Source of the DNA: Escherichia phage PSD2002
Sequence record: OK335775.1
Length of the DNA: 64,000 nucleotides
Direction: 5' to 3' (one strand)
The position numbers and the translations under genes are program-made. Below are positions 14,289-40,912 of the stretch, in pieces. Every line of letters starts with the position of its first letter. Position 1 is the stretch's first letter. The notes beneath the pieces were generated by a model, which saw nothing but the letters and a program-made list of their open reading frames with translations, was not told the DNA's origin and did not search any database.

Positions 14289-14317
14289 GTTTACAACGCC
14301 TTTAAACATGATACTAT
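14289..14317 (+). promoter_or_regulatory. T4-type early promoter (PeSL-like cassette copy 1)
   Basis: gtttac + 17 nt + tactat; about 43 nt identical to the copy at 14995. Confidence 0.6.
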
Positions 14318-14346
14318 AGACCTATCAACTACATGAGGAAATAAAA

Positions 14347-14994: not shown

Positions 14995-15023
14995 GTTTAC
15001 AACGCCTTTAAACATGATACTAT
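14995..15023 (+). promoter_or_regulatory. T4-type early promoter (PeSL-like cassette copy 2)
   Basis: Same 43-nt sequence as 14289-14331. Confidence 0.6.
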
Positions 15024-15055
15024 AGACCTATCAACTAATGAGTGAGGAAAATAAA

Positions 15056-21059: not shown

Positions 21060-22208
21060 ATGATTGAATTATATGATAACTTGATGGCCCTGGTTAAAAA
21101 CTCGACTAAATCTAAGTTCTTCTTTAAAGACTTTCAGAGTGCGCTAGGAGTCAACTATCGCATCTTTAGTTATAACTATGCATCGTACAGTGATTGGTTG
21201 GAAGACGGCGCACTAGAGTGCCGAGGCATTATGTTTGAAATGGACGAGAACGGTCCAGTACGTATTGCTGCTCGTCCTATGCAAAAGTTCTTTAACCTTG
21301 ACGAAAACCCTCTGACCATCGGTCTAGATTTGTCACCAGAAAATATTGACCTCGTAATGGCTAAGGAAGATGGTTCTCTGATTTCTACATTCATGGACCG
21401 ACAGTATCTTTCTGTTAAATCTAAAGGCTCTATCCATTCATCAATGGTGCATGATTCTTTACGGTTCCTTCGTCTCCCTGAGAACGAGGCCTTTGCCGCA
21501 CGTCTAGAAGAAATCACTAAAGCTGGGTATACCTGCAACCTTGAATATGTAGCACCTACCAACCGTATCGTTCTGGCTTACCAAGAAACAAACCTCATCC
21601 TGTTGAACGTTCGTAATAATGAAACAGGTGAATATATTCCGTATGCTGAATTGTTTAAAGATGGTGCCCTGCGTAAGCATTTGGTTGAAAGTTATGAGCT
21701 CGCTGAGGGCGATTTCGTAGAAAACATCCGTAAGCAGGAAGGCATTGAAGGTTTCATCTTTGTACTGAAAGATGGTACGTTCTTTAAACTCAAAACCGCC
21801 TGGTACAGTGCACTGCATCATACCAAAGATTCCATTAACAATAACGAACGTTTGTTTGAAGTTGTAGTGGCTGGTGGTACTGATGACCTTCGTGGTCTGT
21901 TCAGTACGGATTCGTTTGCTATCGAGAAAATCGATGCCTTTGAACGTATCCATTTAGATTACTTAGAACAATCATTAGCCTTGTTAGAAGCAGCGTACTC
22001 CCAACTTAAGGGTCGCGACCGTAAGGACTACGCCGTTACTGGTCAACTAATCCTTAAGGACTTTCCAGGGTTGTTCTCTATTCTTATGCAGGCGTACGTA
22101 GGCGGCATTAATTATGATACGGTCATGGACCAGATTAACTCTGTGTTCTTGAAAAACCATAAAGCCCAAATCCCTGAAAAATATTTGAAAGAAATTGTGG
22201 TAGAGTAG
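21060..22208 (+). CDS. rnlA: RNA ligase 1 / tail fibre attachment protein gp63
   Basis: 382 aa; YRIFSYNYASYSDWL..ALECRGIMFEMD...EDGSL (ligase lysine-motif region) matches T4 Rnl1. Confidence 0.85.
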   Translation: MIELYDNLMALVKNSTKSKFFFKDFQSALGVNYRIFSYNYASYSDWLEDGALECRGIMFEMDENGPVRIAARPMQKFFNLDENPLTIGLDLSPENIDLVMAKEDGSLISTFMDRQYLSVKSKGSIHSSMVHDSLRFLRLPENEAFAARLEEITKAGYTCNLEYVAPTNRIVLAYQETNLILLNVRNNETGEYIPYAELFKDGALRKHLVESYELAEGDFVENIRKQEGIEGFIFVLKDGTFFKLKTAWYSALHHTKDSINNNERLFEVVVAGGTDDLRGLFSTDSFAIEKIDAFERIHLDYLEQSLALLEAAYSQLKGRDRKDYAVTGQLILKDFPGLFSILMQAYVGGINYDTVMDQINSVFLKNHKAQIPEKYLKEIVVE

Positions 22209-22236
22209 TTTACATCTCCTCATGATGTGTTAGTAT
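22208..22236 (+). promoter_or_regulatory. T4-type early promoter for alc, embedded in 8-bp inverted repeat
   Basis: gtttac + 17 nt + tagtat; ctcctcat ... atgaggag inverted repeat spans promoter and RBS. Confidence 0.55.
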
Positions 22237-22266
22237 AGACTTACCAACTAATGAGGAGAAAACAAA

Positions 22267-22767
22267 ATGAATATGCAAATGATTACTAACGAAATGGTTG
22301 TTAAGGCTTTTGGTGATTCTACTGACGGTATCCAAGTTTTTAAAGGTTCTCGTGCAGTAGGTTACCTGACCGATCTTCGTGTTACTTTAGCTAAAAATGC
22401 TAAAAAGAAAATCAAGCAAAAAGAATACTCTACCCGTTACGCTGAAGAAAAGCGTGAAGCCATGCCCGAAGCTGTTAACTCTATGGTTGAGTTTCTCCGA
22501 AACAACCTTTCCAAATACGATGCCGAGGTGTTTATTAATATTAGCCAACCTAATGTTAAAATCTCAGGCATCACTTTCTATTTGATTTGTGACCCATTAA
22601 GCGACAAGTTTAATCGCCTTGGCATTTCAAGTCCTTACCATACTGCTGAAGAATTATGTTTTATGTTTGAAACGTATAAAATTCAGTGTGAAAATCCTAA
22701 AACGGTTCTTATTAATTCCCTGTCACGTGATGACATCATCGAGATTATTACCAAATGTCTAAATTAA
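22267..22767 (+). CDS. alc: Alc-like protein (host transcription shut-off)
   Basis: 166 aa, position between 63 and pseT region as in T4 (Alc 167 aa); sequence identity not independently verified. Confidence 0.55.
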   Translation: MNMQMITNEMVVKAFGDSTDGIQVFKGSRAVGYLTDLRVTLAKNAKKKIKQKEYSTRYAEEKREAMPEAVNSMVEFLRNNLSKYDAEVFINISQPNVKISGITFYLICDPLSDKFNRLGISSPYHTAEELCFMFETYKIQCENPKTVLINSLSRDDIIEIITKCLN

Positions 22768-28721: not shown

Positions 28722-28970
28722 ATGAACAAACAATTGAATCACGCTCTTGAACTGCAACGCAACGCTTGGAACAACGGTCACGAAAACTACGGCGCATCTA
28801 TTGATGTTGAGGCCGAAGCACTGGAAATCCTGCGTTATTTCAAACATCTGAATCCTGCTCAGGCTACTCTGGCTGCTGAACTGGAAGCTAAAGATGAACT
28901 GAAATTTGCTAAGCCTTTGGCTTCAGCAGCTCGTAAAGCAGTACGTCATTTTATTATTACCCTGAAGTAA
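28722..28970 (+). CDS. rIII: rIII-like lysis inhibition accessory protein
   Basis: 82 aa, same size and position (after gene 31) as T4 rIII. Confidence 0.5.
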   Translation: MNKQLNHALELQRNAWNNGHENYGASIDVEAEALEILRYFKHLNPAQATLAAELEAKDELKFAKPLASAARKAVRHFIITLK

Positions 28971-29232: not shown

Positions 29233-29394
29233 ATGGCTAAGAAAGAAGTTAAAGTAGTTGACGGTACCTCTAAACGCGCTGGTTACAAGCGTGCGTCCAA
29301 CAAGCGTATCAATCAGGTAGTTGATAAGCTTCAAGCTCGTGCTCGTGCAGTATTGCGTGCAGATGCTGCTTGCTTTGGTAAGCCTCAGGCATAA
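29233..29394 (+). CDS. Small basic protein (53 aa), not in ORF track
   Basis: Manually translated MAKKEVKVVDGTSKRAGYKRASNKRINQVVDKLQARARAVLRADAACFGKPQA; followed directly by a strong terminator. Confidence 0.4.
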   Translation: MAKKEVKVVDGTSKRAGYKRASNKRINQVVDKLQARARAVLRADAACFGKPQA

Positions 29395-29399
29395 GTTAT

Positions 29400-29427
29400 G
29401 GGACTCCGAAGAGTCCCATTTTTGTTT
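29400..29427 (+). terminator. Rho-independent terminator
   Basis: gggactc-cgaa-gagtccc stem-loop followed by atttttgttt. Confidence 0.75.
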
Positions 29428-29446
29428 CTAAATCTTTAAAAAAATG

Positions 29447-29475
29447 GTGTACATCTCCGGTAGGCATGATACTAT
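29447..29475 (+). promoter_or_regulatory. T4-type early promoter in inverted repeat (PeSL-like), shared leader with 29889 copy
   Basis: gtgtac + 17 nt + tactat; tgtacat...atgtaca inverted repeat; downstream leader tatagac.tgtaccaaataatacgaaaacaaact repeated at 29914. Confidence 0.55.
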
Positions 29476-29516
29476 AGACATGTACCAAATAATACGAAAA
29501 CAAACTGGAGAATAAA

Positions 29517-29885
29517 ATGAAAATCAATCTTAACTCATATATCAAATGTAAAGACCACGACGGTTACAAAGCAATCGAAACTAAAGAAATGCAATGGCAC
29601 TTGTACAAAGAACAATTTGAATTTGTAGGTTGCATGACTCCGGAAGGTCCTTCTGATGACTTCTCTTGGAAAATTATGGTAACAAACTTTTTTACCGGTG
29701 ATACCTACGAACTGAAAACTATCATAACCGGTAAGATTCGTTGTAAGACCTATGAAGATGAAGAAACCGGTTATTCTGAAGATGTTACATGGTATCAAAA
29801 TGGTCGCACTACTGCTGATGAGTTGATTGAAAAAATGAAAGCCAAAGGTGAATTAAATTTAGATAATTGGATTAAAGTTGCATAA
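29517..29885 (+). CDS. Hypothetical early protein
   Basis: 122 aa ORF after early promoter. Confidence 0.5.
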   Translation: MKINLNSYIKCKDHDGYKAIETKEMQWHLYKEQFEFVGCMTPEGPSDDFSWKIMVTNFFTGDTYELKTIITGKIRCKTYEDEETGYSEDVTWYQNGRTTADELIEKMKAKGELNLDNWIKVA

Positions 29886-29888
29886 AAC

Positions 29889-29917
29889 AGTTTACTTTGG
29901 TACAGGTTGTGTTATTA
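29889..29917 (+). promoter_or_regulatory. T4-type early promoter in 9-bp inverted repeat (PeSL-like)
   Basis: gtttac + 17 nt + tattat; ggtacaggt ... acctgtacc. Confidence 0.55.
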
Positions 29918-29967
29918 TAGACCTGTACCAAATAATACGAAAACAAACTAAACCAAAGGATAATAAA

Positions 29968-30333
29968 ATGAACTACATCAACTTCGAACGTAAATATGTT
30001 TCTATCGGTGCGGTTGGTTCTAACGAATACATGTGTTTATGGGAGCATAAAAACGGTTCAGTTTGCGAAATCGACCATTGGGTTTCTCCTGATTATGTTT
30101 ATATGCGATTTGAAAATGGTATCACTCTTTCAATCACTAAAGAAGGTTCTTCTTTTAAAATAGCTTTAGATGATGATTTCCGTCAACGTGATTTAGGTAC
30201 TCATCCTTGCTGGAACGGCGTTAATCGTAAGCTTCTGGTTAAAACCTGGATTCGTCACATCCTGAGCAACCGAGCTAAACCTGAACACCTGGAAGCAATC
30301 TTTGATGTAGTTCTGAACGAATTCGATATCTAA
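29968..30333 (+). CDS. Hypothetical early protein
   Basis: 121 aa from ATG after repeated leader (track ORF start 29878 lies upstream of the promoter). Confidence 0.5.
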   Translation: MNYINFERKYVSIGAVGSNEYMCLWEHKNGSVCEIDHWVSPDYVYMRFENGITLSITKEGSSFKIALDDDFRQRDLGTHPCWNGVNRKLLVKTWIRHILSNRAKPEHLEAIFDVVLNEFDI

Positions 30334-30343
30334 TCTTAAAAAT

Positions 30344-30362
30344 GGAGGCTTCGGCCTCCTTT
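30344..30362 (+). terminator. GC hairpin with UUCG loop (terminator / processing signal)
   Basis: ggaggc-ttcg-gcctcc followed by ttt. Confidence 0.45.
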
Positions 30363-30857: not shown

Positions 30858-31070
30858 ATGTTTAAGAAATTGATTCAGAAATTATTAGGTACGGAAATGG
30901 TCGAAGTGACTTATCGTGTAACTGATTTATCTCCTGTGCATCCACAAGATGAACCATATACTAAAACAATTAAAATGCTGAAATCTGACGGCGGATTATC
31001 TATTAAAGACCGTCTACCTTGTTATGGTCATTGGGCTGATGTAGAGATTATCAGTGTCAAAGATATTTAA
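30858..31070 (+). CDS. Hypothetical small protein, tandem paralogue A
   Basis: 70 aa; MFKKLIQKLLG.E.VEVTYRV.DLSP......IISVKDI shared with adjacent ORF. Confidence 0.5.
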   Translation: MFKKLIQKLLGTEMVEVTYRVTDLSPVHPQDEPYTKTIKMLKSDGGLSIKDRLPCYGHWADVEIISVKDI

Positions 31071-31079
31071 GGAGTCTTC

Positions 31080-31292
31080 ATGATTAAGAAATTATTTAAA
31101 AAGCTGTTTGGCTTGGAACTGGTTGAAGTGACTTATCGTGTTATTGATTTATCACCGCCATATGCTTGCGATGAAGATGCTATTAAAACTGTTGTTATGC
31201 GAAAAACATATCGCGGGCAGTCAATTAAAGAAAGATTGCCAGATCATGGCATGTGGTATGCAACCAAGATTATCAGTGTCAAAGATGTCTGA
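31080..31292 (+). CDS. Hypothetical small protein, tandem paralogue B
   Basis: 70 aa; about 50 percent identical to 30858..31070 with conserved termini. Confidence 0.5.
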   Translation: MIKKLFKKLFGLELVEVTYRVIDLSPPYACDEDAIKTVVMRKTYRGQSIKERLPDHGMWYATKIISVKDV

Positions 31293-34415: not shown

Positions 34416-36311
34416 ATGTCCGAACAATTGAATGAGGTATTTGATGGTGATATAAATTTATCTGCTGTCAATTTAAACCCTAAACTTAAAGTCCCACAGA
34501 TTTGGAATATAAAGGCTGAAGGTAACGAGAACCTTGTTGCCCGCATGGTTTCATATACTTCCGAAGGCGATGTAATTCGTCAGGTTAAGCCTGGTGACAA
34601 GTATGTTCATGTCGTTTTAATGAGCCTATCGGCTAAAGGTTCTCCTGCCGAACTCAAAGGTGGATTAGGTACCAATCCTATTTCCGCTATTCGTTCTATA
34701 TTTGATATCGTCTATGAACAGGTCAAGGCCCTTCGTATGGACGCTGTTATGTTCCGTTTTCCTACCAAGAAAATGAAAGGGCAGGAAAAAGCTATACAGA
34801 GGGTATTGGCTAAATTAATAGCCTCTAGAGCAGGCGGACAGTTTAAAGTTCTTGATGCCTTGTATCAATTCACCGGTAAGCATTCGTATGTTTTTATCTA
34901 TCGTAAAAATAAAAATATAGAATCTATAAATGGTATTCCTAATATTAATTTAGAATTGTATACTAAAGTCGAATCTGAAGTCGGTGACGTGTATGTTTCA
35001 AAGAAAACAGGCGAAGATGTTACCAAACTAGAAGCTATAGCTAAGTCCATAGACGAAATAGAAAAATCACGTTCTGATAAAACTGTTATAACCAAAACAA
35101 AGGTTTCTAAACGTGCTGCTATCAATGCTTTATATCCTACAGCAGAGCCTACAGGATTGAGTAAATTTTCGGCAGAGCACAAAAAAGCTTATGCAGATTA
35201 TTCTGCTACTAGTTCCGTTCATTCTTCTGAAGATTCTAAAGAAAGCCAAATAGCTTTAGCCAGTAATAAAATATTAAAAGACACCTCTAAAGAAATGGCA
35301 GAATATTTGGATTATATTTTTAACGGTGTTAATCCATCATTTGAAGTAGACGAGCGCAAACTTAAACTAATTGCTGATATAAAGTTTGCTTTAGAGGCAT
35401 CAGATTCTTTAGATAAATCTAATAGTGTCATAGAGGCTTTAAAATCAGGTAAATCTCATGTAGACATTCTTAGACTAGTCGCTGCGGCCCTTTTAGATGA
35501 TTCAGTTAAAGGTACTTGGGCTAGAGAATCTAAAATCAAGGAAGTAATAAAATCCTTAGTAGCAGTTTATACAAAATCTATCCAACCGTTGTTTAAGATA
35601 TCTGATAATCCTAATTTATCCAAACCTCAAGAAGAGGCAGTCAAAAAGTATACTCGTGGCGGCTACAACCATATAAACAACTTTTTGCTAGGTAAAACAG
35701 ATACCACCGATGAAATGATAAAAATGATTGGTGAGTTGGATTCTACATTTGAAAATGGTACAAAACTTCCTAAAGGAACCATAGTGTATCGTTCTCAGAT
35801 AATGCCTACCGAAATGGCTTTGAATTCTATAAAACATAAGGTGATGTATCTTCCTATTTTTGCATCAACTTCATTGGCTCCTAATATTTTCGGTGAAATG
35901 GGTCATGCTCAATCCAACTTAGACCCTGAAGCTCTTTCTAGCGATATAGATAGTAATCTTGAAGACACCATTAAAAGTGCGACCGGAAGTGCTAGAGATA
36001 CCATTAAGCTAGGGTTAATTATTAAAGGTGCTGATAAAATTAAGGTTATTGTGCCCGGTGACTTGGCTAATTGGTCTACAGAAACCGAAGTAATTCTTCC
36101 TCGTGGGGTTATGCTTAAGATTAATAAAGTATACGGTGCTTCCAAGGGACCTATGGGTTCAATTGGTAAATATGTTTTAGTGGAATGTGAAGTTGTAGCT
36201 ACCGAGCAAATCACAGAGGAAGATTCATATAGCACCGGATTCTCGTTTGGAAATTATGATAGAATTATGTATGAAGATTCTATGGAAAAATTAGCAAATT
36301 TATTTAAATAG
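34416..36311 (+). CDS. Alt-like ADP-ribosyltransferase paralogue 1 (putative injected head protein)
   Basis: 631 aa; conserved N-terminal about 230 aa shared with two downstream ORFs; LNE/VF N-terminus resembles prohead protease cleavage/capsid-targeting site; C-terminal R-S-E ART signature (VYRSQ, FASTSL, TETEVILPRG). Confidence 0.7.
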   Translation: MSEQLNEVFDGDINLSAVNLNPKLKVPQIWNIKAEGNENLVARMVSYTSEGDVIRQVKPGDKYVHVVLMSLSAKGSPAELKGGLGTNPISAIRSIFDIVYEQVKALRMDAVMFRFPTKKMKGQEKAIQRVLAKLIASRAGGQFKVLDALYQFTGKHSYVFIYRKNKNIESINGIPNINLELYTKVESEVGDVYVSKKTGEDVTKLEAIAKSIDEIEKSRSDKTVITKTKVSKRAAINALYPTAEPTGLSKFSAEHKKAYADYSATSSVHSSEDSKESQIALASNKILKDTSKEMAEYLDYIFNGVNPSFEVDERKLKLIADIKFALEASDSLDKSNSVIEALKSGKSHVDILRLVAAALLDDSVKGTWARESKIKEVIKSLVAVYTKSIQPLFKISDNPNLSKPQEEAVKKYTRGGYNHINNFLLGKTDTTDEMIKMIGELDSTFENGTKLPKGTIVYRSQIMPTEMALNSIKHKVMYLPIFASTSLAPNIFGEMGHAQSNLDPEALSSDIDSNLEDTIKSATGSARDTIKLGLIIKGADKIKVIVPGDLANWSTETEVILPRGVMLKINKVYGASKGPMGSIGKYVLVECEVVATEQITEEDSYSTGFSFGNYDRIMYEDSMEKLANLFK

Positions 36312-36319
36312 GATAGATT

Positions 36320-38401
36320 ATGACCCAATTAAATGAAGTGTTCGAGTCCGAAGGTACACTGCCTGTTGTGAACTTGAACCCAAAACTTAAAGTACCTCAG
36401 ATTTGGAAGATTGGAGACGCGGAGTCTCAGTTAGTAGCACGTATGGTATCCTACGCTTCTGAAGGTGATGCTATTAAACAAGTTAAAATGGGTGATAAAT
36501 ATGCCCACGTTATCCTTATGAGCCTTTCAGCTAAAGGTTCGCCTGCCGAACTTAAAGGCGGCTTAGGCCCTACTCCTGTAGATGCGATTAATACTATTTT
36601 TGATGTGGTTTATGACCAAGTTAAAAAGCTTCGTATGGATGCCGTGATGTTCCGTTTCCCTACTAAGAAAATGAAAGGTCAAGGCCCTATCGTTCAACGG
36701 ATTATCCAACGTTTGGTAGCACAGAAAACCGGTGGACGTTTTAAAGTGGTTCCGGCTATGTACCAATTTACCGGTAAACATACTTACATCCTGGTAGTTC
36801 GTAAACAAGCTGATATAGAAGATATCAAAGGTATGCCTGGAATTAATGCTGAATTGTATACTAAGGTAGATTCTGATGTCGGTGAAGTTTATATTTCTAA
36901 AAAAGAAGGCGTACAGGTTACTAAAGAAACTGCTATCGCCGGTAGTATTGCTAAGGTTGAAGAACGTCGCACTGATAAAATGGTTATAACCAAGACTAAG
37001 ATTTCTCGACGTGCTATTGCAGCAAGTCAATCGTTAGAATCTTATCGTAATGAAAGTGGGCTGTTTAAGAAATATGAAGCTACTGCAGTAGATTTTAATA
37101 AACCGGCAACAGTTCCATTAATCCCTGAGGCCCAGGAAATGGTCACTAATAACAATTCTCCTGCGGCTAAAAATAAGGTTGCTAATATAGTAGCTGAAGG
37201 CACTGCTGAAGAATTGCATTACGACTATAAATTGTTCCCACTTCACGGTATTGGTGAAATCCAAGAGAAAATTAAAGAGAAAATTCTTACAGCTATCAAA
37301 AATGAACCTTTGACATCTGTTAAAGCCCTGGAAAAATATGCCTCTACCATTAATACCATTTTCGAAGAATATAAAGGCGAGTGGCTGGCTATCCATAACA
37401 GAACTCGTAAAGGCCAACCTGACGACGTCTGGAATGAATTAACCGAGTCCAAGTGGAAAGCAGCCAAGACTAAGTTCATTAAAAAACGTGTGTATAGTTT
37501 TGCTGGCGTAGGTGGTGGTATTATGGTCGATATTACTATTGCTCGTGAGGGCTCTAAATATACCCCATCACAAAAGCGCGGCATCAGAGAATATTGTGGT
37601 TCAGGATATACAGACATAAATAATCTTCTTTTAGGACGTTATAATCCCCAGAACTATGAGGTTATGAGCGAAAAAGATATCGAATCTGCAGTTAATAATT
37701 TGGATTCCGCTTTTGAAAATGGCGACCGTATACCAGAAGGCATCACAGTTTATCGTGCACAGAGTATGACTGCTCCTATATACGAAGCACTAGTTAAAAA
37801 TAAAGTGTTCTATTTCAGAAATTTTGTATCTACTTCTTTAACTCCTATAATTTTCGGACGTTTTGGTGTTACACACGCTGGTATTGGTCTTTTAGAACCG
37901 GAAGTTCGCAACGAATTGACAGTTGATAAAAATGAAGAAGGAATAACTATTAATCCTAATGAAATAAGAGCGTATAAGGAAAATCCCGATTACGTTAAGG
38001 TTCAAATAGGATGGGCCATTGATGGGGCTCATAAAGTTAATGTCGTATATCCAGGAAATCTCGGAATAGCAACTGAAGCCGAAGTTATTCTACCGCGTGG
38101 ATTAATGGTCAAAGTTAATAAAATAACAGATGCTTCTAATAATGATGGAACAACATCTAGTAATACAAAACTCATCCAAGCTGAAGTTATGACAACAGAT
38201 GAGCTTCAAGAATCTGTTGTATATGATGGTGATGTACTAATGGAAACCGGCGAGTTGGTCGTATATCAAGATGACTTCGATACTTCCGAAAGCCCCTTAT
38301 CTTTTGATTCATTTGTTAAATCTACACGGTTTGATGTACTGCCTCTTTTGGCTTCATGCATAGACCTCTATGACATCCCAGAAAAATTCATCCAAGGGTA
38401 A
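36320..38401 (+). CDS. Alt-like ADP-ribosyltransferase paralogue 2
   Basis: 693 aa; same N-terminal module; ART signature VYRAQ, FVSTSL, TEAEVILPRG. Confidence 0.7.
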   Translation: MTQLNEVFESEGTLPVVNLNPKLKVPQIWKIGDAESQLVARMVSYASEGDAIKQVKMGDKYAHVILMSLSAKGSPAELKGGLGPTPVDAINTIFDVVYDQVKKLRMDAVMFRFPTKKMKGQGPIVQRIIQRLVAQKTGGRFKVVPAMYQFTGKHTYILVVRKQADIEDIKGMPGINAELYTKVDSDVGEVYISKKEGVQVTKETAIAGSIAKVEERRTDKMVITKTKISRRAIAASQSLESYRNESGLFKKYEATAVDFNKPATVPLIPEAQEMVTNNNSPAAKNKVANIVAEGTAEELHYDYKLFPLHGIGEIQEKIKEKILTAIKNEPLTSVKALEKYASTINTIFEEYKGEWLAIHNRTRKGQPDDVWNELTESKWKAAKTKFIKKRVYSFAGVGGGIMVDITIAREGSKYTPSQKRGIREYCGSGYTDINNLLLGRYNPQNYEVMSEKDIESAVNNLDSAFENGDRIPEGITVYRAQSMTAPIYEALVKNKVFYFRNFVSTSLTPIIFGRFGVTHAGIGLLEPEVRNELTVDKNEEGITINPNEIRAYKENPDYVKVQIGWAIDGAHKVNVVYPGNLGIATEAEVILPRGLMVKVNKITDASNNDGTTSSNTKLIQAEVMTTDELQESVVYDGDVLMETGELVVYQDDFDTSESPLSFDSFVKSTRFDVLPLLASCIDLYDIPEKFIQG

Positions 38402-38404
38402 ATA

Positions 38405-40528
38405 ATGGAAAATTTAAATGAGGTTTTTGATAGTGATTCCGCTAAAAACTATCCAGTAACAAATCTTAAACCGGGTTCCGGTATTCCACAGATTTTCTCT
38501 ATCCAAGCACCAGGTAATGATAATCTGGTTGCTCGTATGGTATCTTATGCGTCTCAAGGAGACGCTATTAAAATGGTTAAGCCGGGCGACAAATATGTTC
38601 ATGTTATCTTAATGAGTTTATCTGCTAAAGGCGCTCCGGCAGAACTCAAGGGTGGTTTGGGTACCGATCCACTCGGTACACTGAACACCATTTTCGATAC
38701 CATATATGAACAAATAAACAAACTTAAAATGGACGCGGTTTTGTTCCGTTTCCCTACTAAGAAAATGAAAGGTAAAGGTCCTACCGTTCAGCGCGTATTA
38801 GCTCGCTTGGCTATGGCTCGTACCGGTGGTAAGTTTAAAGTTGTTGACGACATGTTCCAATTCAGCGGAAAACATACCTACGTTCTTTTAGTACGTCGTG
38901 GTGCTAGTATTGAAGATATCAAGGGTATGCCTGAAATTAATGCCGATCTTTATACTAAAGTTGAGTCTAAAGTTGGCGAAGTGTATGTTTCTAAGAAAAC
39001 CGGCCAGGCTGTAAGTAAGGTCGAAGCCGTAGCGGCATCTATTGCACAAGTTGAAGAGAAACGTACTGATAAGGCTGTCATTACTCGTACTAAGATTTCG
39101 CGTCGTATGGCAGCGGCGGCGCAGTATTCTACTGCTGAGCCTGAAACTTTGTCCTCTAAAGAATTGCAGGTTTATAACGAGTTTGAAGCTTCTGTACCGG
39201 TTCACACGGCTGAAGGCCCTGAGAACGAAGGTATTGAACAGATTAGTCAGAACTTTAAAAAAGGTGCCATTACTAAAATGCGTCAGGCTTCTCAGTTTAA
39301 ATCTAAGAGCGAGGACCTTGCCAACTTTAGATACACTATTGCTCTCACACACGCTTTAATGACTGATAGTAAATTTAAACTAAATTATGCTAATAGAGAT
39401 AAACAAGGGTTTGAAATTTACTCTAATAATATGGCATTTTTTAATACAGAAGTCGATAGACTTTTAAGTGGCCTTTCGCAAATCAATACAACCAATAGTC
39501 TGGATATTATTAAGAAAATTGTTAATAACCTGAGTACCCGTTTTAAGGGTTCCCCTTCAGAGAAAGCATCTAGAATTGCTTTCGCTATGGAAGCCGTTTA
39601 TAAACTGGTTAACGATTCTATTAGTGATGCATATGCTTATTCAGGCGAGCTCATTAAACCTAAGGACCTAACCAAAGATGAAAGCAATGCTATTATTGAA
39701 TATTGCGCGGCTGAATATGCTCCTATGAACTTATTCCTTTTAGGTAAACCTGAATCCGAAAACAATACAACGGCTATTAAATTGATTAAGGATTTAGACT
39801 CAGCATTTACTAAGGGTATTAAACTTCCTAAGGGTACTATTTTGTATCGTGGTCAGGATTTGCCATACAAAATTCTGCGCCATAATATCGATAACAAAAC
39901 ATTTTACTTTAAGAACTTTGTGTCAGCCTCATTAAAGCCTAACATCTTTGGTGAATTCGGTAAAAATTATATGGCCCTCGACAACCAAGCCGTTTTTGTT
40001 GGTGGTGAAGGTTCTTTGTCCTCCGCTGATGAGTTGTTTAAATTGGCTAGTGGTAGTTCATCTGATGTGGGTGAAGTCGATGACGAAGAGGTAGAATGGG
40101 AAGAAGACGAGTTTGGTAATCCAATTGCACCTGAAGGTCCTGCAGATAGAATTGCTGAAATTGGTATGGTTATTCGAGGTGCTGAAGCAGTTAAAGTTAT
40201 CGCTCCTGGTGACCTTACAGAATATGCCGAAGAAGCAGAAATTATCCTTCCGCGTGGATTATTGTTGAAGGTTGATAAAGTAGCGGCTTTTGCCATGAAT
40301 GATAGAGTATCTCACAAATACCTTATGGAAGCTACCGTAACGCCTCCTTCAGAGCTCAGCGAATCTGTTTACGATGGTGACCATTTGATGGAAACTGGTG
40401 AAGTTCGCCTGATGGATGGATTTAGTCAATTCTTGGTTAATGAATCCGTTTCTGAAAGCAACGAAGCTATGGAAATCCTTGCCGCGTCTTTGGATATCTC
40501 TTCTTTATCAAATAAATTCAAAATGTAG
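38405..40528 (+). CDS. Alt-like ADP-ribosyltransferase paralogue 3 (variant STS motif)
   Basis: 707 aa; same N-terminal module; ART signature LYRGQ, FVSASL, EEAEIILPRG; extra acidic insert (DDEEVEWEEDE). Confidence 0.65.
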   Translation: MENLNEVFDSDSAKNYPVTNLKPGSGIPQIFSIQAPGNDNLVARMVSYASQGDAIKMVKPGDKYVHVILMSLSAKGAPAELKGGLGTDPLGTLNTIFDTIYEQINKLKMDAVLFRFPTKKMKGKGPTVQRVLARLAMARTGGKFKVVDDMFQFSGKHTYVLLVRRGASIEDIKGMPEINADLYTKVESKVGEVYVSKKTGQAVSKVEAVAASIAQVEEKRTDKAVITRTKISRRMAAAAQYSTAEPETLSSKELQVYNEFEASVPVHTAEGPENEGIEQISQNFKKGAITKMRQASQFKSKSEDLANFRYTIALTHALMTDSKFKLNYANRDKQGFEIYSNNMAFFNTEVDRLLSGLSQINTTNSLDIIKKIVNNLSTRFKGSPSEKASRIAFAMEAVYKLVNDSISDAYAYSGELIKPKDLTKDESNAIIEYCAAEYAPMNLFLLGKPESENNTTAIKLIKDLDSAFTKGIKLPKGTILYRGQDLPYKILRHNIDNKTFYFKNFVSASLKPNIFGEFGKNYMALDNQAVFVGGEGSLSSADELFKLASGSSSDVGEVDDEEVEWEEDEFGNPIAPEGPADRIAEIGMVIRGAEAVKVIAPGDLTEYAEEAEIILPRGLLLKVDKVAAFAMNDRVSHKYLMEATVTPPSELSESVYDGDHLMETGEVRLMDGFSQFLVNESVSESNEAMEILAASLDISSLSNKFKM

Positions 40529-40876: not shown

Positions 40877-40883
40877 ACCCCTA

Positions 40884-40912
40884 AAGGAGAGCATATGCTC
40901 TCCTTTTTTGTT
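40884..40912. terminator. Bidirectional rho-independent terminator
   Basis: aggagagcat-atgctctcct palindrome followed by TTTTTT; separates convergent genes. Confidence 0.7.

Follow-up and report, generated by a model that had tools for sequence, protein, structure and literature searches.

Two adjacent early-promoter cassettes with a common leader in the rIII-to-ligase region of a Dhakavirus, and their likely part in the exchange of gene 30.8

Results

Two promoter cassettes around gene 30.8

We found a near-identical leader repeated in front of two neighboring small genes, 30.8 and 30.7, in the window, which here means the whole 64-kb stretch of phage DNA that was analyzed. From comparison of sequences, the region is likely to be made of two adjacent composite early-promoter cassettes of the promoter-early stem-loop (PeSL) type in the Dhakavirus rIII-to-ligase region. 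In the same reading, the repeat was copied from the promoter of 30.7 (P30.7) to the promoter of 30.8 (P30.8) and provides homology patches for the exchange or deletion of an open reading frame (ORF). The duplicated cassette is an instance of a described phenomenon, PeSL, and not a new kind of element. Each cassette would consist of a sigma-70/T4-early promoter (-35 box, 17-nt spacer, TGn, -10 box), an A-rich structureless leader, and a Shine-Dalgarno (SD) block. The features of the region are as follows:

29398..29419, + strand: terminator-like hairpin 3′ of gene 30.9, ATGGGACTC-CGAA-GAGTCCCAT, 9 pairs including 5 GC, followed by a T-run at 29420-29429
29430..29446, + strand: AT-rich stretch 5′ of the P30.8 -35 box, AAATCTTTAAAAAAATG, UP-element-like
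29447..29475, + strand: predicted early promoter P30.8, a consensus match with -35 GTGTAC (29447-29452), a 17-nt spacer, TGn (TGA, 29467-29469), and -10 TACTAT (29470-29475)
29467..29506, + strand: repeat copy 1, with the extended -10 box, the start region, and the first part of the leader
29507..29517, + strand: SD block of 30.8, GGAGAATAAAA, matching GGAGRAYARAA
29517..29885, + strand: gene 30.8, 122 aa, Pfam Phage_30_8 (PF06019), the exchangeable ORF that the two cassettes enclose, present in the window as the "long" allele
29890..29918, + strand: predicted early promoter P30.7, with -35 GTTTAC (29890-29895), a 17-nt spacer, TGn (TGT, 29910-29912), and -10 TATTAT (29913-29918)
29910..29949, + strand: repeat copy 2, probably the source copy
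29950..29967, + strand: variant SD region of 30.7, the insertion AAACCAAA (29950-29957) and then GGATAATAAAA
29968..30333, + strand: gene 30.7, 121 aa, Pfam Phage_T4_Gp30_7 (PF06919)
30344..30359, + strand: intercistronic UUCG hairpin 3′ of 30.7, GGAGGC-TTCG-GCCTCC, given as context outside the repeat

The window belongs to a JS98/WG01-like T4-type phage of Dhakavirus, and its best match was Shigella phage PSD9 (Dhakavirus, 99.3%). The locus lies in the hyperplastic region between rIII and gene 30, alongside small non-essential ORFs. The first-pass annotation had placed the two ORFs correctly at 29517-29885 and 29968-30333. It had also described their products as not obviously similar, which agrees with our results: BLASTP gave no significant match between 30.8 and 30.7 (the best E-value was 0.33, for WG01 30.7 against the 30.8 of the window), and their Pfam families differ. 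Thus, an origin of the two genes by gene duplication was rejected. In addition, 30.8 and 30.7 are also adjacent in T4, there without a common leader.

Both copies of the repeat are downstream of matches to T4-early-type promoters, as had been proposed, and the predicted start sites are near 29482 (P30.8) and near 29925 (P30.7). Other Dhakaviruses have GTATAC or GTTTAC as the P30.8 -35 box. The P30.7 promoter is conserved in T4, RB69, Gaprivervirus, and Dhakavirus, and its -35 box begins 4 nt past the stop codon of 30.8. The promoter consensus TAyTATAGAC was found at five sites in the window. We found no mapped T4 start sites for P30.8 or P30.7: the supplement of a dRNA-seq preprint gave no usable start-site table, and both T4 GenBank records are without a promoter annotation at this locus. 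For translation, 30.8 has GGAG at 29507 with ATG at 29517, and 30.7 has AAGGAT at 29956 with ATG at 29968. Meanwhile, T4 early promoters have been described in PMC2988021, and by analogy with that description the stretch AAATCTTTAAAAAAATG at 29430..29446 resembles an UP element and may act as one. The loop of the hairpin at 29398..29419 is CGAA in the window and TTCG in PSD9, WG01, dhaeg, and ESCO10.

Extent of the repeat and lack of structure in the leader

The repeated leader was confirmed over 40 nt, with 37 identical positions (93%) between 29467-29506 and 29910-29949. These direct repeats are 443 bp apart; they take in the extended -10 box and the predicted start site and continue for about 25 nt into the A-rich leader. 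The first ~13 nt (TGnTAyTATAGAC) are promoter consensus and are also found at other early promoters of the window, so only the remaining ~27 nt are specific to the pair. A 26-nt exact core, TGTACCAAATAATACGAAAACAAACT, occurs exactly twice in the 64 kb and gave 0 matches in 100 shuffles. Furthermore, a second common block includes the ribosome-binding site and the start codon (GGAGAATAAAATGAA at 29507-29521 and GGATAATAAAATGAA at 29958-29972, 14/15 identical). In copy 2, the 8-nt insertion AAACCAAA separates the first common block from the second. The segment 29950..29967 is the left edge of a stretch common to the window and PSD9 only.

The first-pass annotation had suggested that the common leader might be a regulatory RNA element and had proposed a structure prediction for it. 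From the predicted start site to AUG, both leaders folded at 0 kcal/mol (z = +0.75). A search of Rfam at E ≤ 1 gave only a chance-level mir-3 match on the minus strand inside the 30.8 ORF (E = 0.4, 21 bits against a gathering threshold of 54). The leader is absent 5′ of 30.8 in T4 and Gaprivervirus and partial in RB69, and its 3′ part is polymorphic within Dhakavirus. A structured leader RNA was rejected on the folds and the Rfam result. The suggested regulatory RNA element is unsupported because the leader is structureless, the pair is found in Dhakavirus only, and the 30.8 leaders of T4 and Gaprivervirus are unrelated. Most probably, transcription of each gene starts at an early promoter of its own, and the leader itself is structureless.

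Distribution and origin of the repeat

The 40-mer was found in 45 of 50,697 phage records. There were two copies in 44 of them and one copy in JM10 (Mosigvirus), and every two-copy record whose taxonomy was retrieved is a Dhakavirus. Most of the records (43/45, JM10 included) were at least 97.4% identical to the query 40-mer. An exact scan of IMG/VR found the 26-nt core in six contigs, with one or two copies each. Wherever the context was examined, the copies were upstream of 30.8 and 30.7. No genome in the phage collection or IMG/VR had more than two copies, and a dispersed or mobile cassette elsewhere was rejected. Lack of conservation of the element in related phages had been named as what would refute the first-pass interpretation. 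The outcome of this check was mixed, with the 40-mer restricted to a single genus and JM10.

P30.7 retains TATTATAGACCTGTACCAA and its partner arm in T4, RB69, Gaprivervirus, and Dhakavirus. Meanwhile, the P30.8 of T4 and Gaprivervirus is unrelated save for the SD block. We infer that the 40-nt repeat belonged originally to P30.7 and that recombination or gene conversion placed a copy at P30.8 in the ancestry of Dhakavirus and, in part, of Mosigvirus. The gene conversion and its direction are deduced from a handful of genera, and parts of the motif are present at Jiaodavirus and RB69 promoters, so the history may be more tangled. In addition, the near-invariance of the leader in 44 genomes could reflect a function beyond detection here.

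Probable recombination at the cassettes

The other suggestion of the first-pass annotation, a recombination cassette, is supported by natural recombinants. The comparative genomics that it had proposed placed breakpoints between the window and WG01 at the cassette edges and showed that JM10 has lost 30.8. Between the window and WG01, which belong to the same species, identity was 93-100% up to ATGAAAA of 30.8 and only about 50% through the 30.8 ORF, where the two alleles are 39% identical as proteins. From the P30.7 -35 box, the identity was again 28-30/30, with a new break at 29949/29950. In WG01, JS98, and ESCO10, a different allele has taken the place of this 30.8, and every combination of 30.8 allele and 30.7 SD variant was found among the Dhakaviruses. 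Furthermore, the 30.8 allele of the window is 93-95% identical to that of Gaprivervirus, whereas the flanks are 83-90% identical.

Among the records, only JM10 has a hybrid promoter that connects 30.9 to 30.7, with loss of 30.8. The other listed Mosigviruses have about 444 bp more than JM10 at the junction. Upstream of the junction, JM10 is Mosigvirus-like (95-96%), and downstream it is Dhakavirus-like (90-92%). Judged from this sequence comparison, a crossover that joined one cassette to the other removed 30.8 from JM10. It is the sole documented copy-to-copy recombination and the only, indirect, evidence that flanking copies yield deletions here as they do in PeSLs; the crossover patch is short and imperfect. 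Allele swaps, on the other hand, need only homology at orthologous positions between two genomes, not between the copies in one genome.

The copied stretch gives a direct repeat of 26-51 bp on either side of the 30.8 ORF. Additional homology comes from two blocks that are near-invariant or invariant between genera, GGAGAATAAAATGAA and the P30.7 core GTTTACTTTGGTACAGG, the first base of which is T in several Dhakaviruses. With such short homology patches, recombination of the T4 type would exchange or delete the 30.8 ORF.

A conserved hairpin at P30.7

Each promoter had been said to lie inside an inverted repeat of 7-9 bp. This is true for P30.7, where the repeat is perfect over 12 bp, but not for P30.8, where the local repeat of 6 bp (GTACAT/ATGTAC) is at chance level and was rejected (z = -0.66). 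Of the first-pass observation as a whole, the repeat, the ORFs, and the promoters held, and the inverted repeats were only half right; of its interpretation, the recombination cassette stood and the common regulatory RNA element did not. The helices of the two promoters are as follows:

29454..29461, + strand: 5′ arm of the spacer-to-SD pairing at P30.8, TCTCCGGT, upstream of the predicted start
29504..29511, + strand: 3′ arm of the same pairing, ACTGGAGA, overlapping the Shine-Dalgarno GGAG
29896..29932, + strand: promoter-embedded hairpin at P30.7, its 5′ arm TTTGGTACAGGT (29896-29907) falls in the spacer, its 3′ arm ACCTGTACCAAA (29921-29932) extends across the start site, and its 13-nt loop is the extended -10 box

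The P30.7 inverted repeat folded at -19.3 kcal/mol (z = -4.8). A helix of 9-14 bp upstream of 30.7 was present in 34 of 38 distinct sequences and was reached by at most 26 of 1000 shuffles. In the alignment, 87% of the cells were paired, compared with 32-45% in slid controls. Seven of the 14 pairs were changed on both sides, and none of 500 shuffles reached the observed covariation. The CIP9-type (Kanagawavirus) hairpin was excluded from the covariation alignment on account of its different register. The P30.7 inverted repeat is an evolutionarily conserved, covarying hairpin in at least eight genera. The relatives from IMG/VR comprised 13-14 loci found by the 30.7 protein or alignment, and 20, 2, and 17 loci found by distant 30.7 homologues, in which many contigs were identical. 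The genus sampling is modest because some searches gave few IMG/VR loci and the contigs overlap.

The arms have been replaced wholesale between genera, and complementarity is retained, up to 14 bp. In Karamvirus and Gelderlandvirus, the 5′ arm is still in the spacer, and the 3′ arm is about 35 nt further downstream, on the SD sequence. The non-Watson-Crick cells of the core helix were all G.U on the sense strand (three independent cases and one in Kanagawavirus), with zero A.C. As a separate observation, this deep conservation and covariation goes beyond the first-pass annotation.

The hairpin of the window is predicted to leave the SD sequence of 30.7 untouched. For this SD, the predicted unpaired probability was 0.68-0.71 when the RNA reads through and 0.73 when it starts at P30.7 itself. 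In read-through RNA, P30.7 would have a 12-bp hairpin just 3′ of the 30.8 stop codon.

Spacer-to-SD pairing at P30.8 and alc

At P30.8, TCTCCGGT and ACTGGAGA are predicted to form a helix of 8 bp with one G.U, which is part of the minimum free energy structure. This pairing was above shuffled sequences, which equaled it in 1/300 in one test and in 4-9/1000 in another. The predicted unpaired probability of the SD was 0.08-0.15 in read-through RNA versus 0.35 in the promoter's own transcript; for P30.8 of T4, the corresponding values were 0.00 and 0.81. Within Dhakavirus and Mosigvirus, there were no double-sided changes in the P30.8 helix, and 328 of 500 shuffles reached the observed covariation value. 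One pair varies from A-U in ESCO10 to G.U in the window and G-C in dhaeg. In RB69, the helix is only 5 bp. A spacer-to-SD pairing is likewise predicted at the alc promoter (22208).

In both promoters, the 5′ arm (29454-29461 or 29896-29907) is part of the spacer and precedes the -10 box; the 3′ arm is at the predicted start site or beyond it. Since the 5′ arm is upstream of the start site, the helix is possible only in RNA reading through from upstream. At P30.8, such a read-through helix would cover the SD sequence. In these models, this suggests that read-through and promoter-started transcripts are treated differently.

Discussion

Our preferred reading of the common leader is duplication by recombination at PeSL-type cassettes, and four other explanations were weighed against it. 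The leader might be a cis-regulatory RNA element, such as a site for a phage or host protein or a small RNA, or a translational enhancer, that co-controls 30.8 and 30.7. Both copies are almost invariant in the 44 Dhakavirus-type records, and the leader, rich in A and single-stranded, is RNA of the kind to which ribosomal protein S1 and RegA-like repressors bind (PMC3014915). However, this explanation is improbable. The leader has neither a predicted fold nor an Rfam match, the 30.8 leaders of T4 and Gaprivervirus are unrelated to it, and the 30.7 leaders diverge between genera past ...TGTACC. Within Dhakavirus, the 3′ end of the leader has indels and two SD variants, and the ESCO10 copies differ at four or five positions. 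Furthermore, the leader is unlike the quoted RegA SELEX consensus. The inverted repeats could instead act as DNA, either as a palindromic operator through which a dimeric protein turns off the early promoters, or as a cruciform or hairpin that attracts a recombination or structure-specific nuclease and becomes a recombination hotspot. The symmetry centre is the -10 box, and breakpoints cluster at the locus. However, we consider a DNA-level role unlikely, because the arms were swapped wholesale between genera with complementarity retained, and the shifted 3′ arm of Karamvirus and Gelderlandvirus fits RNA folding and not a fixed operator geometry. The restriction of G.U to the sense strand, with no A.C cells, is also suggestive against it.

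It is scarcely credible that the resemblance arose by chance or composition, from the consensus of strong early promoters and an AT-rich leader, even if TGnTAyTATAGAC recurs at five or six promoter-like sites of the window and GGAGAATAAAATG is the SD block 5′ of 30.8 and 30.7 in several genera. The 26-nt core is downstream of the consensus part and is found nowhere else in the 64 kb, with 0 expected, and its uniqueness refutes a chance resemblance. In addition, promoters of the same class have other leaders, and the 26-mer is not in many Dhakavirus early leaders (phage records and IMG/VR). Tandem duplication of an entire gene, promoter included, and later divergence of the coding sequences would agree with direct repeats in front of two ORFs that almost match in length (122 and 121 aa). 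Nevertheless, it is highly improbable given the dissimilar proteins, their different Pfam families, and the T4 arrangement of both genes side by side without a common leader.

The locus provides a base-resolved natural example of single small-gene exchange in T4-type phages, in which patches of promoter, leader, and SD are the crossover points both within one species and between genera. The PeSL model is supported, and its range now includes the JS98-like Dhakaviruses, a group employed in phage therapy. Moreover, the cassettes point to natural ORF-swap sites for engineering such phages.

The helices lead to a more tentative proposal. The P30.7 hairpin, together with the pairings at P30.8 and alc, suggests that the device of a promoter inside an inhibitory hairpin, so far known for late promoters only, may serve early promoters as well. 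It is possible, although we would not yet rely on it, that T-even phages have a class of early promoters (30.7 in at least eight genera, 30.8, and alc) that sit within an RNA helix and supply its 5′ arm from their own -35/-10 spacer. Read-through RNA would fold, with the SD masked or the junction capped, and promoter-started RNA could not. The duplicated Dhakavirus leader would then be a by-product of recombination between such modules. If true, this would be a general way to restrict or tune immediate-early expression, and we found no earlier description of it.

Comparison with known systems

The strong cleavage consensus of RegB/S1 in T4 early mRNAs is GGAGRAYARAA (PMC3014915). The block GGAGAATAAAA (GGATAATAAAA in copy 2) fits this consensus, which explains why the SD block is alike in several genera, and RegB/S1 may cleave at the candidate sites GGAGAAUAAAA and GGAUAAUAAAA. 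However, this accounts for only the last ~11 nt before the AUG and not for the 40-nt repeat. The conserved promoter/leader elements of the IP genes of T-even phages (Repoila et al. 1994, as summarised in PMC2839356) are also comparable. According to that summary, they have a T4-early promoter base and weak AT-rich stem-loops and bracket highly polymorphic small genes, but they are at another locus and have another sequence.

The T4 genes e, soc, 49, and I-TevI have SD-sequestering hairpins with an internal promoter (reviewed in PMC3014915). Similarly, the predicted start site is between the arms at P30.8, at the alc promoter, and at the 30.7 promoters of Karamvirus and Gelderlandvirus. With this arrangement, long transcripts can mask the ribosome-binding site, and transcripts from the internal promoter are without the 5′ arm. 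The T4 cases, however, use late promoters (TATAAATA) and silence early read-through (PMC3014915). Neither promoter of the window is of that late type; both have early -35/-10 boxes of the sigma-70 type, the 5′ arm is the promoter's own -35/-10 spacer, and the P30.7 hairpin of the window is predicted to leave the SD free.

The cassettes were also compared with the PeSLs that Arbiol et al. 2010 (PMC2839356) and Comeau et al. 2014 (PMC4122927) described in T4-type phages, and differ from them in several respects. The extended sequence has only two copies, both at one locus, and is not a dispersed family; the 40-mer is present exactly twice per genome, and only TAyTATAGAC recurs in the window. The stem-loop is outside the common part, which extends from the -10 box to within the leader. 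In the P30.7 cassette (cassette B), the stem-loop encloses the -10 box instead of lying upstream of the promoter in canonical form, and without a T-run it is not terminator-like. This cassette has no separate AT-rich tract because its -35 box directly follows the 30.8 stop codon.

The known PeSLs and the present ones are both composite intergenic cassettes with an early promoter, a stem-loop, an SD, and a start codon. P30.8 and P30.7 both match early promoters with ~17-nt spacing, and both cassettes have an SD and a start codon at the 3′ end. The P30.8 cassette (cassette A) has the canonical order of stem-loop/terminator (29398-29419 with its T-run), AT-rich stretch (29430-29446), -35, -10, SD, and ATG. 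The location is hyperplastic, with indels and replacements between close relatives and adjoining small genes of unknown function, and the copies flank ORFs that are replaced or deleted between such relatives. Finally, PeSL-flanked swaps and mini-circles are known, including a crossover between the -10 and SD boxes (PMC2839356; PMC4122927), and the segment in which this published mini-circle junction lay is the one that is duplicated here.

Locus and Structure of the Repeat

The 3.1-kb stretch around the repeat matched 793 T4-type phage records, and its top match was Shigella phage PSD9 (99.3%), which is classified as Dhakavirus wg01. The locus corresponds to the early-transcribed hyperplastic region of T4, from rIII to gene 30, and the plus-strand gene order is cd, 31, rIII, 30.9, 30.8, 30.7, 30.6 and onward to DNA ligase. 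Here, cassette A denotes the promoter, leader and Shine-Dalgarno (SD) unit before gene 30.8, and cassette B the same unit before gene 30.7; P30.8 and P30.7 are their predicted early promoters.

Features of the locus (window coordinates)
28722-28970, plus strand: rIII
29233-29394, plus strand: 30.9
29398-29419: terminator-like hairpin with T-run (cassette A), followed by an AT-rich tract up to the -35 box
29447: P30.8 (predicted), -35 box GTGTAC, 17-nt spacer, TGA, -10 box TACTAT at 29470
29507: GGAG, after the leader of cassette A and before the ATG at 29517
29517-29885, plus strand: 30.8, Pfam Phage_30_8 (PF06019, E = 1e-44)
29890: P30.7 (predicted), -35 box GTTTAC, 17-nt spacer, TGT, -10 box TATTAT at 29913
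29968: ATG, after the leader and AAGGAT of cassette B
29968-30333, plus strand: 30.7, Pfam Phage_T4_Gp30_7 (PF06919, E = 8e-49)

The first-pass annotation had described a shared leader before two ORFs whose proteins are not obviously alike, and we found that both observations were correct. The stretches 29467-29506 and 29910-29949 are identical at 37 of 40 positions, and two copies of the 26-nt core are present in the window versus 0 expected; the 30.8 and 30.7 proteins show no mutual similarity and belong to separate Pfam families. Cassette B begins 4 nt past the 30.8 stop codon. Given this anatomy, the repeat begins at the extended -10 box, crosses the predicted start site and ends within the leader. 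The opening ~13 nt (TGnTAyTATAGAC) are a promoter form also found elsewhere in the window, and the remaining ~27 nt are specific to the 30.8/30.7 pair. In addition, a second common block (GGAGAATAAAATGAA / GGATAATAAAATGAA) spans the ribosome-binding site and start codon, and in copy 2 it is preceded by an 8-nt insertion.

In the terminator hairpin that follows 30.9, the loop (29407-29410) reads CGAA in the window and TTCG in PSD9, WG01, dhaeg and ESCO10, and the same flip distinguishes JM10 and RB69. Such a 4-nt loop inversion is as expected for template switching within a hairpin. Two tandem 70-aa gene 30.4 paralogues lie at 30858-31070 and 31080-31292 (~78% identical over 77 nt); there are also two copies in WG01 and dhaeg, and one in PSD9, the closest relative.

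Origin of the Shared Leader

The shared leader had been suggested to be either a common regulatory RNA element or a recombination cassette. The former found no support. Structure prediction over the stretch from the predicted start site to beyond the AUG gave 0 kcal/mol for both leaders, and no Rfam model matched them. The 40-mer was present in 45 of 50,697 phage records, 44 of them with two copies, and the two-copy records were Dhakavirus in every case where the taxonomy was retrieved; the single-copy record was JM10, a Mosigvirus. In a scan of IMG/VR, contigs had at most two copies. JM10 aside, the repeat is confined to one genus. In T4 and Gaprivervirus, the 30.8 promoter and leader have nothing in common with their 30.7 counterparts but the SD block, and the RB69 30.8 upstream region has only TATAGACnTGTACCA in common. 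Immediately before the AUG, a block of ~11 nt (GGAGAATAAAA) is identical in several genera. This sameness can be explained without a new element, because the block agrees with the consensus published for strong RegB/S1 cleavage, GGAGRAYARAA (PMC3014915), and RegB would be expected to cut it.

The recombination cassette is supported by breakpoints at the cassette edges and by a deletion in JM10. We aligned the window base by base with WG01, which is of the same species. Identity was 100% in 30.9 and 93-97% in cassette A as far as ATGAAAA; it was about 50% in the 30.8 ORF and 28-30 of 30 from the P30.7 -35 box to 29948, with a renewed break at 29949/29950. Furthermore, the segment 29950-30107, which holds the 30.7 SD variant and ~140 nt from the start of the gene, was 74-81% identical to all phages compared but PSD9, and the remainder of 30.7 was 84-95% identical to the compared phages and 100% to PSD9. 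Judged from these identities, 29950-30107 is a mosaic patch from a putative unsampled donor, and it begins exactly where the shared leader ends. The 30.8 alleles, of 110 aa (T4-like) and 122 aa (window), are only 39% identical; both are found after the same Dhakavirus promoter, and each occurs with either of the two 30.7 SD variants. The window allele and its Gaprivervirus counterpart share 93-95% identity, with flanks at just 83-90%. The breakpoints coincide with the cassette edges.

The simplest reading is that the P30.8 copy arose by conversion from P30.7, since P30.7 keeps TATTATAGACCTGTACCAA in T4, RB69, Gaprivervirus and Dhakavirus, and the Dhakavirus leader resembles that of Gaprivervirus 30.7. 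The exact identity between the copies varies by genome, for instance 26 nt in the window, 41 nt in JS98 and, judged by eye, about 50 nt in IME341.

In JM10, gene 30.8 has been deleted, and a hybrid promoter joins 30.9 to 30.7. This promoter has the -35 box and spacer of Mosigvirus P30.8, and from TGTGTT-ATTATAGACCTGTACC onward it is Dhakavirus P30.7; the sequence is 95-96% Mosigvirus-like upstream of the junction and 90-92% Dhakavirus-like downstream. No other record has this hybrid junction, and all other listed Mosigviruses have about 444 bp more, that is, 30.8 and one cassette. Klebsiella phage KP185 and its relatives (Jiaodavirus; L027 and L034) also lack 30.8. At this locus, 115 nt upstream of their 30.7 homologue, the 30.7 promoter reads TACTATAGACCTGTACCACC and comes after a terminator hairpin; it lacks the 5′ arm of the hairpin described below and is similar to RB69 P30.8 and the JM10 hybrid. 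They may represent an older deletion of the JM10 type.

Hairpins at the Predicted Early Promoters

Both promoters had been placed inside 7-9 bp inverted repeats. For P30.7 there is indeed a perfect 12-bp repeat (29896-29907 / 29921-29932; -19.3 kcal/mol, z = -4.8), whereas P30.8 has a local repeat of 6 bp that is no better than shuffles (z = -0.66). The 5′ arm at P30.7 lies in the promoter spacer, beginning about 3 nt past the -35 box, the loop is the extended -10 box, and the 3′ arm runs across the predicted start site.

We compared the sequences upstream of 30.7 homologues from T4, RB69, Dhakavirus, Gaprivervirus, Winklervirus, Kanagawavirus, Mosugukvirus, Karamvirus, Gelderlandvirus, Jiaodavirus and IMG/VR contigs. 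A helix of 9-14 bp, from the spacer to the region after the -10 box, was found in 34 of 38 distinct sequences; the observed helix was reached by at most 26 of 1000 shuffles, and by none for most sequences. The arms differ wholly between genera (GGTACAGG / CCTGTACC; GGTGAGAGTCT / AGACTCTCACC; GCTGATTGAGTGT / ACACTCAATCAGC; GGTGTAGGAGTA / TACTCTTACACC; TGTAGGAGAC / GTCTCCTACA; TTGGGTGGT / ACCACCCAA). In the alignment of 11 same-register sequences, 87% of cells were paired, versus 32-45% with a slid partner column, and 7 of 14 pairs showed two-sided change. The covariation score was 0.41, versus 0.05-0.14 for slid controls, and none of 500 shuffles reached it. By these comparisons, the predicted hairpin is conserved with compensatory change. 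The non-Watson-Crick cells of the core helix are all G.U on the sense strand, which weakly suggests a helix of RNA rather than DNA.

The helix was missing from JM10, L027, L034 and L036. In the first three, what precedes the 30.7 promoter is a terminator hairpin rather than a directly adjoining ORF; in L036, the promoter follows an upstream ORF and the arms are degraded.

A transcript from upstream (read-through RNA) contains the spacer, and the promoter's own transcript lacks the 5′ arm. In Karamvirus and Gelderlandvirus, the 5′ arm is still in the spacer and the SD region serves as the 3′ arm (CTCCGTTGTAT / ATACAACGGAG; fully compensated in one contig, CTCCGAGGTTT / AAACCTCGGAG); the SD is predicted to be unpaired with a probability of 0.26-0.65 in the own transcript and of about 0 in read-through RNA. 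The P30.7 hairpin of the window is predicted to leave the SD sequence free. It could stabilise the 3′ end of 30.8 mRNA after downstream cleavage, be a barrier to 5′-to-3′ decay, or act on the promoter DNA. The fixed geometry around the start site suggests selection on the difference between read-through and own transcripts.

At P30.8, a pairing is possible between TCTCCGGT in the spacer (29454-29461) and ACTGGAGA (29504-29511). It is present in the MFE structure and was matched by 1 of 300 and 4-9 of 1000 shuffles; the predicted unpaired probability of the SD is 0.08-0.15 in read-through RNA versus 0.35 in the promoter's own transcript. T4 (TTCCTTTGT / ACAAAGGAG) and Gaprivervirus (TCCAGTG / CACTGGA) use this design with different sequences. 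Within Dhakavirus one pair goes A-U, G.U, G-C, but a formal covariation test over Dhakavirus and Mosigvirus showed no two-sided change, and 328 of 500 shuffles equalled the observed value. The predicted early promoter of alc at 22208 (region 22208-22269; ORF 22267-22767) has a perfect 9-bp spacer-to-SD pairing, TCTCCTCAT with ATGAGGAGA, and the predicted unpaired probability of the SD falls from 0.75 in the own transcript to 0.00 in read-through RNA; T4 alc has this design with different arms. Nine other promoter-like sites in the window showed no such pairing.

If P30.8 and P30.7 fire and start as predicted (near 29482 and 29925), and if the helices act in read-through RNA, as we infer, RNA reading past the 30.9 terminator would have the P30.8 SD partly masked and protected from RegB. 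RNA begun at the early promoter would be open to translation and then to RegB cleavage, and masking and later cleavage together would give a short pulse of synthesis.

Other Repeats in the Window

A 43-nt early-promoter cassette, GTTTAC-N17-TACTATAGACCTATCAACTA, occurs with 100% identity at 14289-14331 and 14995-15037, before two different ORFs (starts 14347 and 15056). It is probably the one that the first-pass annotation counted as the first such cassette, and, like that of 30.8/30.7, it is a duplicated promoter/leader patch; its spacer-to-leader helix was not above chance. Just downstream of the ligase gene, 34583-39000 holds three-fold repeats (32-96 nt, 82-94% identity) around 34.6, 36.6 and 38.7 kb. 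A perfect 24-nt palindrome, a self-complementary blastn match, lies at 40883-40906.

Comparison with Known Systems

In the searchable literature, which is a small share of T4 work, we did not find a promoter-in-hairpin design at early promoters. The covarying hairpin around the promoter offers a lead that can be tested. For P30.8, the proposed logic follows T4 genes e, soc, 49 and I-TevI (PMC3014915), but the P30.8 promoter is early.

In the model of promoter-early stem-loop (PeSL) cassettes, promoter/stem-loop/SD units flank ORFs that are swapped or excised between close relatives, and one mapped mini-circle junction lies between the -10 and SD boxes (PMC2839356, PMC4122927). The literature searched contained no PeSL description at this locus in Dhakavirus. 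Unlike in PeSLs, the extended sequence here is common to only two copies, the duplicated part excludes the stem-loop, and the stem-loop of cassette B surrounds the -10 box rather than preceding the promoter. Nevertheless, the 30.8/30.7 repeat matches the PeSL prediction and is an instance of PeSL-type modular shuffling; the phenomenon is already known, and this example is an unusually clear one.
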